Shown here in pieces: positions 28,655 through 41,698 of a stretch of 64,000 nucleotides of DNA. Each line of letters starts with the position of its first letter. Position 1 is the first letter of the stretch. The notes under the pieces are model-generated. The model was not told the DNA's origin. It saw nothing but the letters and a program-made list of their open reading frames with translations, and ran no database searches. Made by a program: the position numbers and the translations under genes. Source of the DNA: Dehalococcoidia bacterium (GTDB lineage: Bacteria > Chloroflexota > Dehalococcoidia > Lucifugimonadales > CATQGZ01); contig CBDCXW010000005.1 in the NCBI GenBank assembly GCA_965223945.1, positions 2,244-66,243 on the forward strand, in the 5' to 3' direction.

Positions 28655-29641
28655 GTGACCGACACGATACCGAGAGGCATCCGCCCGTCCTTCCCCGTCG
28701 AGGTGCCGAGAAGCCTGGTCCGTGAGAGGTTCCAGGAGCTTCTGGGCCTCGACGAAATTCCGACCTCTGTAGACTTCAGCACCGGCGAGTCACACGAAGA
28801 CGACGGGCTCCGCTTCACCAGTCTTCGTTACGCCAACTACATGGGAGAGACGATCTCGGCTGTGTTGGTCAGGCCCGTTGCCCCAGGAACCGGACCGCTC
28901 CCGGGGGTCGTCGGCATGCCAGGGACGGGCAGCTCAGCCGAGGAGATGATCGATCCCCGGATGTACCGGCCCGTACAGGGGCACGGCCCTCTGCTCGGCT
29001 GGGGCCGCGAACTCGCGAAGAGGGGGTACGCGGTCCTGACCTTCTCCCCGAAGGGCACGGCCGTCCGGCGCAAGACGCGCGACGACTGGGAGGAGGAGAC
29101 GAAGCTGCTGGCGCCCTACGCGAGGCCGCAGCTTGGCATCCTGGCCGACGAGACGATCAGGGCCTCCCTGGTGCTGGCCGCCACCGACGGCATAGACCCC
29201 GAAAGGATTGGCCTGACCGGCATGTCCCTGGGCGGCCTGGCCTCGTGGCTGGCGATGTCGATGGCGCCCTGGGTCCATACCGCCGCTGTCGTCTGCGGCG
29301 TTCTGGGCACGATGGAGCAGATGATCCATCACGGGCAGGTCGAGCGCCACAGCTCGGCCATCTTCATCCCGCACATGCTCCGGTACTTCGACCACCCCGA
29401 AGTCGTGGCGGCCTGCATCGCGCCGAGGCCCTTCATGATGGTCGCGCCGACCGAGGACGACGATATGCCGAGAGAGGGCGTGGACGAGCTGATCAGCGTC
29501 GTGGCGCCGGTATACGAGGTATCAGGACACCCGGAGCATTTTCGGGTCCACCGCCCGCCGGGGATACACACCTACAGGCTGGAGTATTTCGACTGGGTGG
29601 TCGAGTGGTTCGACGAGCACCTGAAGGCGAACGCGGCCTGA
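28655..29641 (+). CDS. alpha/beta hydrolase (dienelactone hydrolase / acetyl-xylan-esterase-like)
   Basis: Nucleophile elbow GMSLGG, a preceding beta-strand/loop pattern PGVVGMPGTGSS, and a C-terminal acid/His region. Confidence 0.7.
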   Translation: MTDTIPRGIRPSFPVEVPRSLVRERFQELLGLDEIPTSVDFSTGESHEDDGLRFTSLRYANYMGETISAVLVRPVAPGTGPLPGVVGMPGTGSSAEEMIDPRMYRPVQGHGPLLGWGRELAKRGYAVLTFSPKGTAVRRKTRDDWEEETKLLAPYARPQLGILADETIRASLVLAATDGIDPERIGLTGMSLGGLASWLAMSMAPWVHTAAVVCGVLGTMEQMIHHGQVERHSSAIFIPHMLRYFDHPEVVAACIAPRPFMMVAPTEDDDMPREGVDELISVVAPVYEVSGHPEHFRVHRPPGIHTYRLEYFDWVVEWFDEHLKANAA

Positions 29642-30010
29642 TGCCTGGGGTCGCCGGACCCATTTCAGTCTAAAGGCGCAAACACTTGGGCTCCCCTCTC
29701 CGATGTCTCTAGGCTCGCTGATAGCCTCATCACCGATTATGAAAAGCTCTTTGGCGAGAACCTTCAGGTAACGCTTCAGACGCGCCTTGGAGCACTGAAG
29801 AACAAGGTCGACCAACAGGGTCAGGTTAATCTCTCGTCTCGGGTTACTGCGCTGGGGGACCGGCTCCCAATCGAGCTCGCGACATTCGACTTGACTGGCC
29901 CTTGCAGGACCTGACTATGATGCTACCATCTCGTTTGGGCTGCCTTTTGAGCCTGAAGACTCCCAATATGGGGAATCCTGGCTTAGACCTGAGACCAGAC
30001 GTCAGACCAT

Positions 30011-31078
30011 ATGGGTAAAAGGACTTTCAGAGAGTTGAAAGCAGACGCGAACGGCAAGATCGAACCTACTGGAACTGGCGAGGACAAGGCCGAAGAACGC
30101 CCGCACGGTTTCTCGGCTGACCAAGAGGCACGGCATGACGGTCAAGCGGAGAGAGGACCCCATGCGGAAGATAGTCGGCCCTTTGAGCCCCTGCGGTCGA
30201 GCTCGGTGAATCGACTGAATCGACTGCAGGACTCGGCGAATCGACTGAGTCGACTGGCGAATTCAGGGATTCTGGACTCGGTGAATGAACTGAGTCGACT
30301 GGCGAATTCAGGGATTCTGGACTCGGTGAATGAACTGAGTCGACTGGCGAGGAATTTCAGTCTCCCGAACCTCTTCGAGTCACCCTTCACGGGATTCCTA
30401 TGGCCTCTACCCCCGCTCGTCAATCCGAAGGCACGAGTGGCCGAAGAACTTGGGTGGGTAGTTCACCGTACCTTGCCAACAACCGTGCTTGAGGATGCTT
30501 CCGAAGACAACCTAGACGAAGCAATAATGACCCACTACAAGGAGCGATGGGCTGAAGTCCGAAGGGAGATCGAACTCGCCACAAGCGGATATTTGATCGA
30601 CGAAGATTCAAAGGAGACCATGAGTCAGATGCTCTCAGCCCACGAATATGGGTTGTACCGCCTAGTGCCGGTGGCGATGATGGTCGAAATAGAGAGGGCT
30701 GTCAGAGTACACTTGTACGGGCAACTCGTAGGGAGGCACCTAGACATCAAAGGGAAAATAGTCGACGAAATAAGCGAGCTCCCGATATCGGCGTTCCAGG
30801 ACATAACCTCAGGCACAATCCAACATGAAACTCTCGAAAATCATCTATACGAGCACATAGACGACGATAGCGACCGGAGCCAGTTCGCGGAAAACCCAAT
30901 CCCGAACCGACATGCGGCAATACACGGGTTGGTTCCCTACTCAACAGAAAAGAGCAGCCTCAACTCCATATTCCTCGCCGACTTCGTCCTTCAGATGATC
31001 ACGGAGATCAAGAAGGAGAAAATTGCCGAAGTCGCAGATATTCTAAGGGGCGGGGTTCTCGGAGCAAAATCAGCGTAG
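30011..31078 (+). CDS. hypothetical protein: disordered N-terminus, tandem SRLANSGILDSVNEL repeats, C-terminal helical domain with candidate HEPN Rx4H motif
   Basis: 355-aa ORF in a visibly lower-GC islet. NRHAAIHG (about 30904-30927) fits the HEPN R-x4-H(-G) catalytic motif near the C-terminal helices. No other family is recognised. Confidence 0.45.
   Translation: MGKRTFRELKADANGKIEPTGTGEDKAEERPHGFSADQEARHDGQAERGPHAEDSRPFEPLRSSSVNRLNRLQDSANRLSRLANSGILDSVNELSRLANSGILDSVNELSRLARNFSLPNLFESPFTGFLWPLPPLVNPKARVAEELGWVVHRTLPTTVLEDASEDNLDEAIMTHYKERWAEVRREIELATSGYLIDEDSKETMSQMLSAHEYGLYRLVPVAMMVEIERAVRVHLYGQLVGRHLDIKGKIVDEISELPISAFQDITSGTIQHETLENHLYEHIDDDSDRSQFAENPIPNRHAAIHGLVPYSTEKSSLNSIFLADFVLQMITEIKKEKIAEVADILRGGVLGAKSA
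30245..30352 (+). repeat. 45-nt tandem repeat (two perfect units plus partial third) inside the 30011..31078 ORF
   Basis: CTGAGTCGACTGGCGAATTCAGGGATTCTGGACTCGGTGAATGAA occurs identically at 30245-30289 and 30290-30334. A third unit matches over its first 16 nt. A degenerate unit lies upstream (about 30200-30244). Confidence 0.9.
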
Positions 31079-31225
31079 ATTGCGCGTCTCTTTCGGCCGG
31101 GGCGGTCTGCGCGTCCATACGCTGGAGTCGCTTCGATTCGGCAGCTTCAGGCACTACTGGGCCGCGATCCTGCTCAGCAGCGGCGTCCAGCAGCATGGGC
31201 ATCCCCTTCTGAACAGTTGCGGGGA

Positions 31226-32920
31226 TTATAACACCGGCTCTTCTCGCCGTAGCCTTTCTATCTCGGCGGCGAACCAGAGGGCCATGCTGCCGCTGCGGTC
31301 GTCGAACCCCGTGAGCGCCTCCCTGTCGAGGTAGTGGCGCAGCGTGAGGCCGTTCCCGGTCCCCGTACAGGCGTCGATGATGTTGCCCCGGTCGTCGATG
31401 CGCTCGGAGACGCCGCGCCACGCCAGCTCGGCAGTCTCCCGGAAGGAGCTGTCCAGCCAGCCCAGTCGCAGGCCGCGTGCGAGGCCGTACCCGACCATGC
31501 AGGTGGCGGTGAGCTCCTGGTAGGAGCCGATGAAGTCAACGACCTGGCGAATCATGCCCGACGTCTCCTGGCGCTCTCGCAGGGCGGCCATCTGCCGGAC
31601 CGCCATCTCCTCGATGCGGCCCCTCTTGGGATGGTCGGCGGGCATGTAGGTCAGCGTCTCCGCCAGGCCGAGAGCCGCGAACCCATTGCCGCGCCCCCAG
31701 TGGAACGGGCCCGTCCGGCTGTGCAGGAACAGCCCGTTGTCCTGCTGGACTCCGGCGTCGAGCAGGAAGTCGGCAAGAATATCGATGCGCGACGCGTCGC
31801 CGGTGAGCGAGAAGCCGCGTCCGAGCACCGCGCTCACGAAGAAGTGGTCCTCGGTCGGGAAGTTGGATCTGGCCGGAGGCGGGGCCTGGCCGGGCCCCTG
31901 GCGGGAGTAGCGGCCCGCGGCCTCTACCAGGATGTCCGAGAACCGGCTGTCTCCTACGGCCTCCGCGAGCTCGTCCCCCCAGACGAAGGCCGCGGAGTTC
32001 TCGCTGATGCCGACTTCCTGACCGTCACGGAAGGCGGATGCACGATCGGCCAGCGGCTCGACCAGGGCGGCGATTTCGGCCGCCGGGGAGGGCGAGTCGG
32101 GTTCGAGGGCCGCCAGACGGAGCCGCCCGCTGATGGCGACTCCCTGCGTGTACACGACCGGCTCGATGGTGCGGCCGTAGGCGGATGTCAGCGCCCTGCC
32201 AATCTCGATGGGCGACCGGGCCCTCCGACGGTCCAGCTCGATGCGGGCGCGCGACGGCACCAAAGCGCCCGACAGCAAGGGCCACAGCCTGTCCAGCTCC
32301 GCCGGTGCCTCTTGAAGCCCTGCCGTGAGCCTGACTCCGGGGACCGAGCCTATGCCCTCCGGCACGCCTCGTCCGATGGCGCCCACGAATCCGTCCGGCG
32401 GCAGGACGGGCGCGGCGTCCAGCGCCGAGGCGAGTGCGCCCGCCGCCTCGTTGACCTCCCACTTCGCGGAGTCGCCCGCCCGAACCTCGATGACCAGGTC
32501 GGGCGCGAGGAGGCAGGTCCAGCGCCAGAGGTAGCGCTCTTCGGGACCGTCGGGGTCGTAGTAGTAACCGCCCTTCGGTGGGTAGGCGGCCTCACTGCTT
32601 CCCGCGCCTCTCCGGGCAGCGAGGTCTGGATAGAGGCATGGCACGGCGGTGAGGGCAGCGGGCGGCTCGCTCCTTCCCGACCATGCCCGCAGGAGATGGA
32701 GCGCGGCGTCGACATCCTCAGCCCGGCCCGACAGGCCCGACACGAGCAACACCCTGGGCCGCCGGCCCGTCCTGGCATAGGCGTCACCGGCCAGCAGAGC
32801 CCGGATGACGTTCTCCAAGCGGGAGACACCGACTCCTGAGAGGCTCCAAAGATCGGGGCGCCTGTCCGCCAGGGCCTCTATTGCCGCAGCGACTCTTGAA
32901 GACATTGGATCGAGGGGCAC
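31226..32920 (-). CDS. GH88/GH105-family unsaturated glycuronyl/rhamnogalacturonyl hydrolase-like protein with extra N-terminal domain
   Basis: The C-terminal half (FHWGRGNGFAALGLAE...RERQETSGMIRQVVD...YQELTATCMVGYGLARG...IIDACTGTGNG) matches the (alpha/alpha)6 YteR/UGL family. Start set at GTG 32920, 6 nt after AAAGGAGG. Confidence 0.65.
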   Translation of the reverse strand: MPLDPMSSRVAAAIEALADRRPDLWSLSGVGVSRLENVIRALLAGDAYARTGRRPRVLLVSGLSGRAEDVDAALHLLRAWSGRSEPPAALTAVPCLYPDLAARRGAGSSEAAYPPKGGYYYDPDGPEERYLWRWTCLLAPDLVIEVRAGDSAKWEVNEAAGALASALDAAPVLPPDGFVGAIGRGVPEGIGSVPGVRLTAGLQEAPAELDRLWPLLSGALVPSRARIELDRRRARSPIEIGRALTSAYGRTIEPVVYTQGVAISGRLRLAALEPDSPSPAAEIAALVEPLADRASAFRDGQEVGISENSAAFVWGDELAEAVGDSRFSDILVEAAGRYSRQGPGQAPPPARSNFPTEDHFFVSAVLGRGFSLTGDASRIDILADFLLDAGVQQDNGLFLHSRTGPFHWGRGNGFAALGLAETLTYMPADHPKRGRIEEMAVRQMAALRERQETSGMIRQVVDFIGSYQELTATCMVGYGLARGLRLGWLDSSFRETAELAWRGVSERIDDRGNIIDACTGTGNGLTLRHYLDREALTGFDDRSGSMALWFAAEIERLRREEPVL

Positions 32921-33056
32921 GTTGACCTCCTTTGGGTGCTGGCAATGATACCGGCTTTGTCCTGCTGACGCTTGACAGACCAGAATATATGTACTACGCT
33001 TCCCCCATGCCAACGACCGACCCCCTACCTGCCGGCGACGTGGGTGTCGAGTAGGT

Positions 33057-39874: not shown

Positions 39875-40237
39875 CTACAAGGCCAGCGGCACAACCTTCG
39901 ACCGGCGTATGACCCGATCACGAGTGAGCAACGGAACACCGTGCACGACGCTAGTGGCGGCAATGAGCTGGTCTGCCGGATCGCCCTGGAAGTCGAGACG
40001 GGTCGAAGCGCGCGCGACCGCGAGGTCAATAGGCCACACGTGCAGGCGGCCCAGGGTGCGTGTAACTTCACGGTCGTCAAGATCCATGTCGACACGACCA
40101 AGCTCAACTAGCTTGGCGAGCTCCCACAGCACAATGGCCGAAATGGACCAACGGCCTTGCGCCAGCATCGCCTGCTCAGGCGGACGGAGATGGGCACTTA
40201 CCGCGAAGACGAGGATATGTGTGTCGAGATTAAGCAT
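39875..40237 (-). CDS. vapC: PIN-domain ribonuclease toxin (VapC family)
   Basis: MLNLDTHILV (Asp), WELAKL (Glu), DPADQLIAATS (Asp) and LLTRD form the PIN acidic residue pattern. The ATG overlaps the antitoxin stop by 8 nt (ATGCTTAA). Confidence 0.85.
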   Translation of the reverse strand: MLNLDTHILVFAVSAHLRPPEQAMLAQGRWSISAIVLWELAKLVELGRVDMDLDDREVTRTLGRLHVWPIDLAVARASTRLDFQGDPADQLIAATSVVHGVPLLTRDRVIRRSKVVPLAL

Positions 40238-40448
40238 CTGCGTCCCAGCGGACGCCGGTCCCAAAGATGTCACCTCTGACATTGACCTTGTGCCGCAGAC
40301 TGCCGATCATGTCGGCCCACTGGCGCTCATAGGGAACGACTCGCGCGACCGGCTTGCCATGCTTGGTGACGATCAGCCCATCGTCGTCCAGGTGATCCAA
40401 CAGAGCCAGGCACTGCTCCTTGAATTTTGCCGCGCCAATCGTTTTCAT
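40230..40448 (-). CDS. Phd/YefM-type antitoxin
   Basis: MKTIGAAKFKEQCLALLDHLDDDGLIVTKHGKPVARVVPY is the classical Phd/YefM N-terminal fold signature. Start uncertain (40448 or 40457). Confidence 0.8.
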   Translation of the reverse strand: MKTIGAAKFKEQCLALLDHLDDDGLIVTKHGKPVARVVPYERQWADMIGSLRHKVNVRGDIFGTGVRWDADA

Positions 40449-40579
40449 TAACGGCATACCTCCCTGAAGTGGACATAGTATACGACTGGTCAATAACTTT
40501 GTCCATTTAGAGTCGTCGGTACCGAAAACAAACAGAACCTTGCTTGACCCCACCTAGCCTTCAAAGGGAGCGCCGACAG

Positions 40580-40607
40580 TTGACATCCTTGTGATATATA
40601 ATATATC
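40580..40607 (+). promoter_or_regulatory. putative mazEF promoter with overlapping 7-1-7 palindrome (candidate antitoxin operator)
   Basis: TTGACA at 40580-40585. Perfect palindrome GATATAT-A-ATATATC at 40593-40607 contains TATAAT/TATATC-type -10 candidates. AGGAGG lies at 40613-40618 and the ATG at 40626. Confidence 0.45.
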
Positions 40608-40625
40608 TGTATAGGAGGTACTCGC

Positions 40626-40865
40626 ATGGGCGCGAAGTCGCACATCTCCAGGTGGGGCACCAGTCTGGCCATCCGAATCCCCAAGCCCATTGCGGAGCAG
40701 TGGGGCGTTCAGGAAGGCTCGTCCATAGAGATCGTCCCCCGAGGTGACCAGATCGTGCTGCGCAAGAAGTCCTATGATCTGAACAGCATGCTGGCCCAGA
40801 TCGAACCGGGCAATCTTCATCCCGAACATGATACGGGGCCGTCCCAGGGCCGCGAGGAATGGTAG
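40626..40865 (+). CDS. mazE: AbrB/MazE/SpoVT-family antitoxin
   Basis: SRWGTSLAIRIPKPIAEQWGVQEGSSIEIVPRGDQIVL is a swapped-hairpin AbrB/MazE fold signature. Overlaps the downstream toxin start. Confidence 0.8.
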   Translation: MGAKSHISRWGTSLAIRIPKPIAEQWGVQEGSSIEIVPRGDQIVLRKKSYDLNSMLAQIEPGNLHPEHDTGPSQGREEW

Positions 40866-41200
40866 ACCGCGAGTATGTCCCCGCAAGGGGGGACATCGTG
40901 TGGCTGAGCTTTACGCCTGAGGTCGGCCATGAACAGGCTGGCCACCGCCCTGCCCTGGTCTTGAGTCCAGAGGCCTACAACGAGAAAACCAGCCTGGCGC
41001 TCTTCTGCCCCATCACGTCCAGGGTCAGGGGGTACCCCTTTGAAGTCCCTCTTCCCTCCTCCAGCGCAGTTTCGGGAGTGATACTGGCCGACCAGGTAAA
41101 AAGCCTGGATTGGCGGGCGAGGCACGCCCGTTTCGGGTGCCACGCCGCACGGCAGGTTGTAGGCGAAGTCCTGGAGAAGGTACACGTCCTCCTAGAATGA
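40859..41200 (+). CDS. mazF: MazF/PemK-family endoribonuclease toxin
   Basis: YVPARGDIVWLSFTPEVGHEQAGHRPALVLSP...FCPITSRVRGYPFEVPL...ILADQVKSLDW matches the PemK/MazF SH3-like fold motifs. Confidence 0.85.
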   Translation: MVDREYVPARGDIVWLSFTPEVGHEQAGHRPALVLSPEAYNEKTSLALFCPITSRVRGYPFEVPLPSSSAVSGVILADQVKSLDWRARHARFGCHAARQVVGEVLEKVHVLLE

Positions 41201-41302
41201 CCACCTGGTCCAACATTGAACGACCTCCCCCGCATCGATACAATTGAAATGGGGATACGAACTCCCGCGAGGCATAAGACCAACACCCCAAGAGGCCAAG
41301 AC

Positions 41303-41698
41303 TTGGAGCTAAGCACCTCATACAAGAACATCCAGCCCAACGACGAGGCGGAGCGCTACATACGGAAGAAGGTGGACAGGCTGGCACGCCACCTCAAGCC
41401 GCCCTCAGACGCCAAGCTCGAGATATCCCGGATATCGTCCCGGTCTCCGGAAGACCGGGTGGTGGCTCAGATGACTCTCACGGCCGGCGGCAGGACGCTC
41501 AGGGCTCAGGAGTCGGGGGCGAACCTCTCGGCGGCCATCGACGCGGTCGTCAACGTGATGGACCGACAGATCAGCCGGTACAAGGGGCAGTTCTACCGGA
41601 CCTCCCAGGCCAGGAGGTCGGCCAGAGCGGCCGCTCGCGAGGACGGCCGGACCATCGAAGTCGAAGAACAGGACTCCGACGTTGCGGAGTCCGACTAG
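41303..41698 (+). CDS. hpf: ribosome hibernation promoting factor / RaiA family (short form with acidic tail)
   Basis: YIRKKVDRLARHL...AQMTLTAGGRTLRAQESGANLSAAIDAVVNVMDRQISRYKG matches the sigma-54 modulation/HPF fold. Start uncertain (TTG 41303 after AGAGG, ATG 41249, or ORF start 41216). Confidence 0.75.
   Translation: MELSTSYKNIQPNDEAERYIRKKVDRLARHLKPPSDAKLEISRISSRSPEDRVVAQMTLTAGGRTLRAQESGANLSAAIDAVVNVMDRQISRYKGQFYRTSQARRSARAAAREDGRTIEVEEQDSDVAESD

Follow-up and report, generated by a model that had tools for sequence, protein, structure and literature searches.

The window considered here is a stretch of 64,000 nucleotides from a Dehalococcoidia bacterium (GenBank assembly GCA_965223945.1, contig CBDCXW010000005.1, positions 2,244 to 66,243 of the forward strand). 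Near its middle lies a short islet of low GC content that carries an intact gene for a protein of 355 amino acids (aa). The islet appears to be what is left of a mobile element of the IS1380 family of insertion sequences (IS). The protein belongs to a widespread family, probably of HEPN type, whose genes recur beside restriction-modification (R-M) enzymes.

The open reading frame (ORF) of the gene, 30011-31078 (+), is flanked by an Abhydrolase_7-like gene (28655-29641, +) and by a convergent GH88 gene (31226-33013, -). This is the arrangement given by a first-pass annotation made from the letters alone, which had also described the segment as AT-rich, and the base composition bears it out. In sliding 400-bp windows, the GC content of 29600-31200 is 0.51-0.57 compared with about 0.65-0.72 on both sides. 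The gene itself has a GC content of 0.535 compared with 0.642 for the whole window, and at third codon positions (GC3) it has 0.60, whereas its two neighbours have 0.86 and 0.83. Within the 64 kb, no GC trough is deeper than the one it occupies. What the annotation missed is the apparent truncation of an IS1380 cassette, the R-M linkage of the relatives and the family-wide occurrence of the repeats.

Relatives at other loci are cited by number. In L001, L082 and L083 the gene is carried by an IS1380 element, and L081 is a sister strain of the window. The islet consists of the following parts:

29642..29890, no strand assigned: spacer, GC 0.566, open on both strands, outside the block common to the IS-borne copies, origin unmatched
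29891..30010, plus strand: 5' leader common to the IS1380-borne copies, with the left truncation point at 29891
29891-29896 and 29916-29921, plus strand: promoter-like TTGACT and TATGAT within the leader, separated by a 19-nt spacer
30011..31078, plus strand: intact 355-aa gene, whose product has a disordered N-terminus, then tandem repeats, then the conserved HEPN-like C-domain
30011..30202, plus strand: residues 1-64, 39% charged (D/E/K/R) and 11% hydrophobic
30199..30363, plus strand: 45-bp (15-aa) tandem repeats of the SRLANSGILDSVNEL type, copy number polymorphic between strains
30398..31075, plus strand: conserved C-domain, aa 130-355 (226 residues), all-alpha, putative HEPN core
31073-31085: weak terminator-like hairpin
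31079..31189, plus strand: 3' block common to the IS-borne copies; blastn matches to L001, L082 and L083 stop at 31189, the right truncation point
31190..31225, minus strand: residual start of an ORF (MPMLL...), the remainder lost in a 193-bp deletion relative to L081

The promoter-like element, which the first-pass annotation had reported, is present at 29891-29921, and the IS-borne copies have TTGAGT-18-TATGAT at the equivalent place. An RNA antitoxin or structured leader was considered for 29891-30010 and rejected, since the leader has no Rfam match at E<=1 and a fold z-score of -1.4. In the spacer upstream, the annotation had seen a start-less frame weakly similar to the gene and possibly a decayed copy of it. 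The frame exists, but it resembles the family no more than expected by chance, and the decayed-copy reading is not supported: phmmer and blastp comparisons of 29642-29890 with 225 family proteins give E >0.9, with no Pfam match and no homology to the L082 element.

The N-terminal part of the protein is charged and was thought from the outset to be disordered. The AlphaFold2 model agrees: residues 1-64 have a predicted local distance difference test score (pLDDT) below 50 and zero secondary structure, and are thus predicted to be disordered. The tandem repeats that follow, also noticed at first reading, are resolved by Tandem Repeats Finder as a 45-bp unit in 2.7 copies with 96% matches (30229-30350). 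A fourth, degenerate copy widens the array to 30199-30363, with all four copies in register. The corresponding protein of L081 (P0001), whose gene shares the window's genomic context, is 340 aa long, with one repeat unit fewer than the window protein. The protein of L001 has 415 aa and carries six 10-aa units in place of the window's repeats. The repeat region varies in unit and number among near-identical C-domains.

Such repeats are a family-wide trait and not peculiar to the window copy. Of the members, 221 have an N-terminal region of 60 aa or more, and tandem repeats occur in 64 of these. Neighbouring units share at least 60% identity, many repeats are perfect, and none of the shuffled controls qualifies. 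The periods are mostly 15-18 aa, and the sequences of the units differ between lineages. One may speculate that an N-terminal module that evolves fast and can be swapped, joined to an effector domain that stays constant, is of the kind to be expected of a sensor or autoinhibitory part. In P0075 (L008) the N-terminus is replaced by Zn_ribbon_13 and HTH_5, an ArsR-type helix-turn-helix, and P0083 has a weak GemA match inside its repeats.

The window protein has no match in Pfam-A, NCBIfam or PADLOC at E<=10, in line with the initial failure to recognise a known family, and its exact sequence is not on record. Relatives are nevertheless numerous. A word-indexed search finds 94 close ones, and exhaustive scanning with HMMER recovers at least 554 clusters (50% identity) at E<=1e-3, or 396 at E<=1e-10; the source names of those on record are all "hypothetical protein". 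The closest relatives come from Dehalococcoidia/Chloroflexota, and members also occur in many Alphaproteobacteria, in Latescibacterota, Gemmatimonadota, Binatia and other groups. Among the cultured hosts are Bradyrhizobium pachyrhizi, Sinorhizobium fredii, Sphingomonas, Novosphingobium and Brevundimonas. Carriage by phages or plasmids was considered and rejected: two tblastn queries match nothing in the INPHARED phage and PLSDB plasmid collections, and IMG/VR holds only 4 family loci. The family is essentially chromosomal. Searches of PHROGs give nothing consistent for it.

Conservation is confined to the C-domain, whose numbering plus 129 gives the full-length numbering. In 41 diverse members the residues Y176, W180, E228, P298, N299, R300, H305, G306, Y310, S316 and N318 are invariant, and G148, W149, H152, P156, D197, H211, R229, H278, Y280, H301 and A302 are conserved in at least 90%. 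Over long range, the ratio of nonsynonymous to synonymous substitution rates (dN/dS) in the family is 0.15-0.24. Two motifs bear on the nature of the domain:

30692..30706, plus strand: E228-x3-R232 (EIERAVR), an Ex3[KR] acidic motif in putative helix 2 (model helix 89-106)
30905..30928, plus strand: N299-R300-H301-A-A-I-H305-G306, an Rx4H motif with a polar histidine after the arginine; codons of R300-G306 at 30908-30928

One hallmark of the HEPN superfamily is a motif Rx4-6H with a polar residue (N, D or H) directly after the arginine (PMC3710099). The first-pass annotation had pointed to an R-x4-H motif of this kind, and the stretch R300-H-A-A-I-H305 has the required spacing. In the pattern N-R-H-x3-H-G, the residues N170, R171, H176 and G177 (C-domain numbering) are invariant in the diverse members and H301 reaches at least 90%, so that the arginine and histidine in question are indeed conserved among homologs. 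Another hallmark is a second conserved acidic residue in helix 2, typically in the form Ex3[KR] (PMC3710099). It corresponds here to E228-R-A-V-R232, in which E228 (C-domain E99) is invariant, R100 is conserved in at least 90% of the diverse set and R103 in at least 90% of a closer set (both in C-domain numbering).

The predicted structure is compatible with this assignment. The C-terminal half had been described as helical, and the AlphaFold2 model of the C-domain is all-helical, with a pLDDT of 93.5 and a predicted template modelling score (pTM) of 0.90. The four proposed helices of the HEPN core span residues 69-83, 89-106, 157-175 and 184-225 (C-domain numbering). A helical insert at 117-150 (model helices 117-126 and 136-150) would lie between helices 2 and 3, where HEPN domains frequently have helical inserts (Anantharaman et al. 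2013; PMC3710099). The Rx4H motif falls on a short helix, 171-175, and the loop that leads to the last long helix. When the model is compared with PDB by Foldseek, the sole matches with a probability above 0.3 are HEPN proteins: TT1696 (1ufb, 0.75), ST0689 (1wol, 0.44) and TM0613 (1o3u, 0.38), with AF0298 (2hsb), Csm6 (4rgp) and HepS (9oij) lower in the list. None of these matches is significant. The first suggestion of a HEPN or abortive-infection protein is thus supported by motifs, a proposed topology and context but by no significant profile or fold match, and membership of the family in the HEPN superfamily is best called probable.

Context is the other source of evidence. The neighbourhoods of the family are R-M, defence and mobile ones, not housekeeping ones. 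Among the 149 ORFs that flank the gene most closely at 75 loci, the Pfam families that recur most often are Type_ISP_C, N6_Mtase, MmeI_*, Eco57I, N6_N4_Mtase, TIR_2, TniQ, HSDR_N and AAA_21. With PADLOC, the models that lead the list are mad2, PglX, Type I and II methyltransferases, Type IIG restriction enzyme-methyltransferases, DrmMI, mad3 and ThsB. An R-M enzyme gene lies within 1.2 kb in at least 19 of 83 loci, a lower bound obtained from seven seed proteins. This linkage is conserved across several phyla and includes same-strand operons of Type I (L006) and Type IIG (L018, L021, L036, L034, L041, L040) systems:

L006 (Dehalococcoidia): HsdM, HsdS, HsdR, the family gene and a 489-aa unknown ORF, all on one strand
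L015 (Sphingomonas): family gene adjoining hsdR
L018, L021 and L036: 1,119-aa Type IIG/ISP-like enzyme directly 5' of the family gene, with start/stop overlap in L021 and L036
L018 and L036: HEC-01A ATPase upstream
L034 and L041: Dsr1, then a Type IIG enzyme, then the family gene
L040: DrmMI-like Type IIG enzyme 5' of the family gene
Seven Gemmatimonadota and related loci: MmeI-type enzyme ending 34-280 bp from the family gene

R-M linkage is among the commonest contexts of bacterial HEPN genes, with at least 16 clades (PMC3710099). These R-M-linked proteins have been read by analogy with PrrC, as latent ribonucleases (RNases) that are freed once restriction is neutralised (PMC3710099). An antitoxin or other universal neighbour was also sought among the relatives and rejected: all-vs-all clustering of the ORFs of 80 loci yields none, which agrees with the first-pass annotation in that no partner antitoxin was recognised.

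Three ORFs are conserved beside the family gene in subgroups and have no Pfam, PADLOC or NCBIfam match. These are the 489-aa ORF of L006 (8678-10147), which overlaps the stop of the family gene within the Type I operon; an ORF of 280 aa situated upstream at the MmeI-linked loci (L033 441-1283); and a 212-aa ORF after the HEC-01A ATPase (L036 3193-3831).

The origin of the islet is suggested by its closest relatives. Between the window and relatives in other contexts, homology always spans exactly 29891-31189. By blastn, identity to L082 and L083 is 87-90% over 29891-30346, and identity to L001 is 94-96% over 29891-29983 and 29915-30256. In L082 and L083, a 444-aa transposase of the IS1380 family (NF033539, 373 bits with a cutoff of 180; DDE_Tnp_1_4, E 1.7e-127) is encoded about 300 bp upstream of the passenger gene, on the same strand. 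A 20-nt core of the terminal inverted repeats (TIRs), CCCACATTTCCCATATCAAC, is present at both ends in L001, L082 and L083, and in L082 and L083 it encloses both transposase and passenger. Target duplications of 5 bp are found as TTTAA in L001 and ATACA in L083, the latter perfect. The element of L001 is a transposase-less derivative of 1,885 bp with 25-nt TIRs that are 96% complementary. The relatives can be arranged as a series in which the element is more and more reduced. The GC content of the elements is 0.55-0.58, compared with 0.64-0.67 in the flanks of L001 and L082; the flanks of L083 have 0.59-0.60.

The window holds neither of the defining parts. There is no tblastn match to the transposase in the 64 kb, nor any other IS1380 DNA, and no TIR is found in the window or in L081 at up to 5 mismatches. 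Judged by transposase and by TIRs with target duplication, the islet is thus a remnant and not an element: a truncated IS1380 passenger cassette that has lost transposase and TIRs and of which about 1.3 kb (29891-31189) is left. The spacer at 29642-29890 was tried as the 3' end of an IS1380 transposase and rejected, the tblastn match having an E of 0.43 on the wrong strand. The IS1380 linkage shows how a single gene of putative defence or toxin function can be scattered into housekeeping regions, and this accounts for small low-GC islets like that of the window.

The sister strain L081 keeps 193 bp more than the window at the right junction, 31189/31190 (L081 5370-5562). A short microhomology, TCCA, is common to both end-points of this deletion. 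Of the extra piece, the first 55 bp or so match the element of L001. The remaining 138 bp or so encode, on the minus strand, MPMLLESLLERVNEIRKRIDAHGSALRKSEAQTRYALIDPLLRELGWDTQDP, which belongs to the ORF of which the window keeps only the residual start (31190-31225) and is a weak match to the start of HSDR_N (positions 2-29, E 0.0055, 17 bits, below the cutoff of 25.1). This fragment may be the stump of a restriction-type gene.

Further details of the elements concern repeats and neighbours. The leader contains, at 29947-29983, a 37-bp TIR-like repeat (…CCCAATATGGGGAATCCTGGCT). A 97% identical second copy is found 3 kb downstream in L082 (12177-12213), beside a solo TIR-like site at 11761-11785, and the 37-mer also lies within a tandem duplication of about 68 bp in L001 (7270-7404). 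It may be a degenerate internal right inverted repeat or a transposase-binding site, as in ISEcp1-type capture. In L083, a nested IS3-family element (9267-10542, with rve and HTH_Tnp_1 ORFs) is situated between the passenger gene and the right TIR. In L001, a 201-aa unknown ORF (9073-9678, -) lies 65 bp right of the element, followed by an 849-aa Eco57I-like N6-adenine methyltransferase with an NPPF motif (9600-12149, -), which suggests that this element landed in or beside an R-M locus.

Taken together, the islet can be explained, with moderate confidence, as the remnant of an IS1380 element with an intact passenger gene, which would encode a divergent HEPN RNase of a family of R-M-linked abortive-infection effectors and would be orphaned here. 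The process would start with an IS1380-family element that brings the passenger gene into a Dehalococcoidia-like genome. The transposase and both TIRs would later be deleted, leaving the leader with its promoter-like region, the 355-aa gene and 111 bp of 3' sequence. In the protein, the conserved C-domain of 200 aa would act as a metal-independent RNase with R300 and H305 as predicted catalytic residues, helped by H301 and E228, and the N-terminal part would be a disordered, fast-evolving tandem-repeat module.

The proposed mode of action is that of a latent toxin, and is adopted from the R-M linkage and from the published analogy with PrrC. The protein may be kept inactive by the N-terminal module, by an adjacent R-M enzyme, or by both, in analogy with PrrC, RloC and the R-M-linked HEPN clades. 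When a phage interferes with restriction, it would cleave RNA and abort the infection. The window copy has no R-M partner and is an orphan.

Several observations weigh against this explanation. Although Pfam-A includes many HEPN_* models, none of 61 family members scanned singly against Pfam at E<=1 matches a HEPN family, and PDB sequence searches, including those with family profiles, give no meaningful match. Profile similarity to an established HEPN family is thus lacking in searches that compared hidden Markov models with sequences (Pfam-A, NCBIfam, PADLOC and PDB); the study that defined the superfamily reports HHpred-type probabilities of 75-98% (PMC3710099). The Foldseek matches to HEPN proteins have E 0.75-9, the best (probability 0.75) having E 0.75, and their template modelling (TM) scores of 0.43-0.52 are normalised to small targets only. 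The conserved residues H152, D197, H211 and H278, together with E228, H301 and H305, might build a metal site instead. It is therefore conceivable, though unlikely, that the C-domain is some other helical protein, such as a metal-dependent hydrolase, a regulator that binds nucleic acid or protein, or an R-M accessory or specificity factor, in which Rx4H is convergent or non-catalytic. The best real fold matches, with TM 0.55-0.64, are uncharacterised phage proteins, and translational coupling to Type IIG enzymes also fits an accessory subunit. R-M genes, moreover, adjoin only about a quarter of the loci, and the family has no universal partner. What speaks for HEPN over such a protein is that four independent hallmarks are found together in the model (an Rx4H whose arginine precedes a polar residue, an Ex3R on the long helix before it, a place for the motif ahead of the last helix, and the insert between helices 2 and 3), that HEPN proteins alone give PDB matches of appreciable probability, and that R-M linkage is among the commonest contexts of bacterial HEPN genes (PMC3710099).

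The remaining objections concern the window copy. It has no R-M or defence neighbour in the 64 kb, its dN/dS relative to the IS-borne copies is 0.7-0.94 in codon alignments with about 20 substitutions, which is compatible with relaxed constraint, and its promoter-like site is non-canonical, as a consensus scan does not call it because the 19-nt spacer exceeds 18 nt. Both TIRs and the transposase are gone, and the 193-bp difference from L081 indicates that flanking remnants are still being deleted. These facts would suit functionless debris, stranded by decay of the IS, unexpressed or unselected, and intact for want of time. This is somewhat unlikely, since the reading frame is whole and no invariant residue has been lost, with none of 15 substitutions relative to L082 at an invariant site, and the leader with its promoter-like element is kept in all copies. 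L081 keeps the same gene intact as well (225 of 226 aa identical in the C-domain), and a dN/dS near 1, here resting on about 20 changes, is expected in very recent divergence. The copy may be autonomous, silent or heading to decay. A gene that serves the transposon instead of the host, as a toxin of the addiction type or an anti-defence cargo by which the IS1380 element is stabilised or spread, is very unlikely. The passenger is a single gene with its own leader inside TIR-bounded units with and without transposase, as such a role would have it. Yet the IS linkage is limited to the window's close clade (L001, L082, L083), and across phyla the gene is found in R-M and defence operons without IS1380. 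It also has no antitoxin partner, is rare on viral contigs (4 loci) and is not found in the plasmid and phage collections.

Among known systems, a close parallel to the favoured R-M-linked HEPN reading is provided by the anticodon nucleases PrrC and RloC. Like the family, these are stand-alone proteins with a C-terminal Rx4H, encoded in or beside Type I R-M operons (compare L006 and L015). By analogy, the shared logic would be that of a latent RNase freed when restriction is neutralised (PMC3710099). Unlike them, the family lacks an ABC-ATPase N-domain and has a disordered repeat N-terminus instead, shows no detectable sequence similarity to them, and is also linked to the single-chain enzymes of the Type IIG/ISP and MmeI types.

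Other parallels are found in the HEPN families Abi2 (AbiD/AbiF), Swt1, RiboL-PSP and DUF4145. Their motif is of the R-N-x-x-A-H-G style, and they have in common with the window family frequent R-M neighbourhoods and an R-[polar]-x3-H-G spacing. In contrast to them, the family carries a distinct helical extension at its N-terminus (with G-W-x2-H...P and Y-x3-W motifs), and the window protein matches none of their Pfam models at E<=10.

The structural matches of best probability are the four-helix HEPN-T proteins TT1696 (1ufb), TM0613 (1o3u), ST0689 (1wol) and AF0298 (2hsb). The alignments cover the whole targets of 120-127 aa (132-142 columns including gaps) with TM 0.43-0.52 by target, and are not significant (E 0.75-4.7, root-mean-square deviation 5.8-8.2 A). 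The query is about 100 aa larger and has the insert and extra N-terminal helices. HEPN-T proteins also pair with nucleotidyltransferases, whereas the window family does not. In BFVD, the C-domain model (m8c87a61657fc) has its whole fold in common with the uncharacterised phage proteins A0A8S5NQ77 (TM 0.61/0.64), A0A2P0ZLD4 (TM 0.55) and A0A8S5MGA6 (TM 0.51), although at 12-15% identity no similarity of sequence is detectable.

For the mobile part, the relatives resemble IS1380/ISEcp1-type units, with an NF033539 transposase and a passenger between 20-nt inverted repeats that start with CC, 5-bp duplications, and a degenerate internal repeat-like sequence between transposase and passenger. Units of the ISEcp1 type act as "transporter IS" that mobilise adjacent or passenger genes. 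The cargo differs in being a putative defence or toxin gene and not a resistance gene. There is also the transposase-less derivative in L001, and the window holds only a truncated remnant without TIRs.

The family appears to be a new, unannotated member of the R-M-linked HEPN-type effectors, distinguished by its N-terminal repeat module and, in the window's clade, by IS1380-mediated mobility. Its candidate effector is not in PADLOC 2.0, Pfam or NCBIfam and, if an active HEPN nuclease, would join the "second-line" defences that back restriction enzymes. Its members are spread over Chloroflexota, Alphaproteobacteria, Latescibacterota, Gemmatimonadota and further phyla. It offers a clean comparative system, with one domain coupled to enzymes of the Type I, Type IIG/ISP and MmeI kinds, to Dsr1 and to HEC-01. 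The N-terminal repeats, which recur and have evolved independently, are an unusual candidate for a regulatory or sensing module. For the window itself the finding is modest, its copy being an orphan remnant and possibly decaying, but the family is worth experimental follow-up.

A broader picture can be drawn only tentatively and is rather doubtful. In it, R-M-guarding HEPN RNases would be widespread and unrecognised; their hypervariable N-terminal repeats, in units of 15-18 aa, would sense or decoy anti-restriction factors of phages or hold the nuclease inactive; and IS1380 elements would spread them as self-contained defence cargo.

The window contains a second low-GC patch at 39875-41200 (GC 0.55-0.57), which by eye has the look of toxin-antitoxin genes. 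It holds a PIN/VapC-like 135-aa ORF (39875-40282, -), a Phd/YefM-like 107-aa ORF (40230-40553, -) and a MazF/PemK-like 113-aa ORF (40859-41200, +). The last of these is followed by an ORF at 41216-41698 that resembles, again by eye, a ribosome-hibernation factor.

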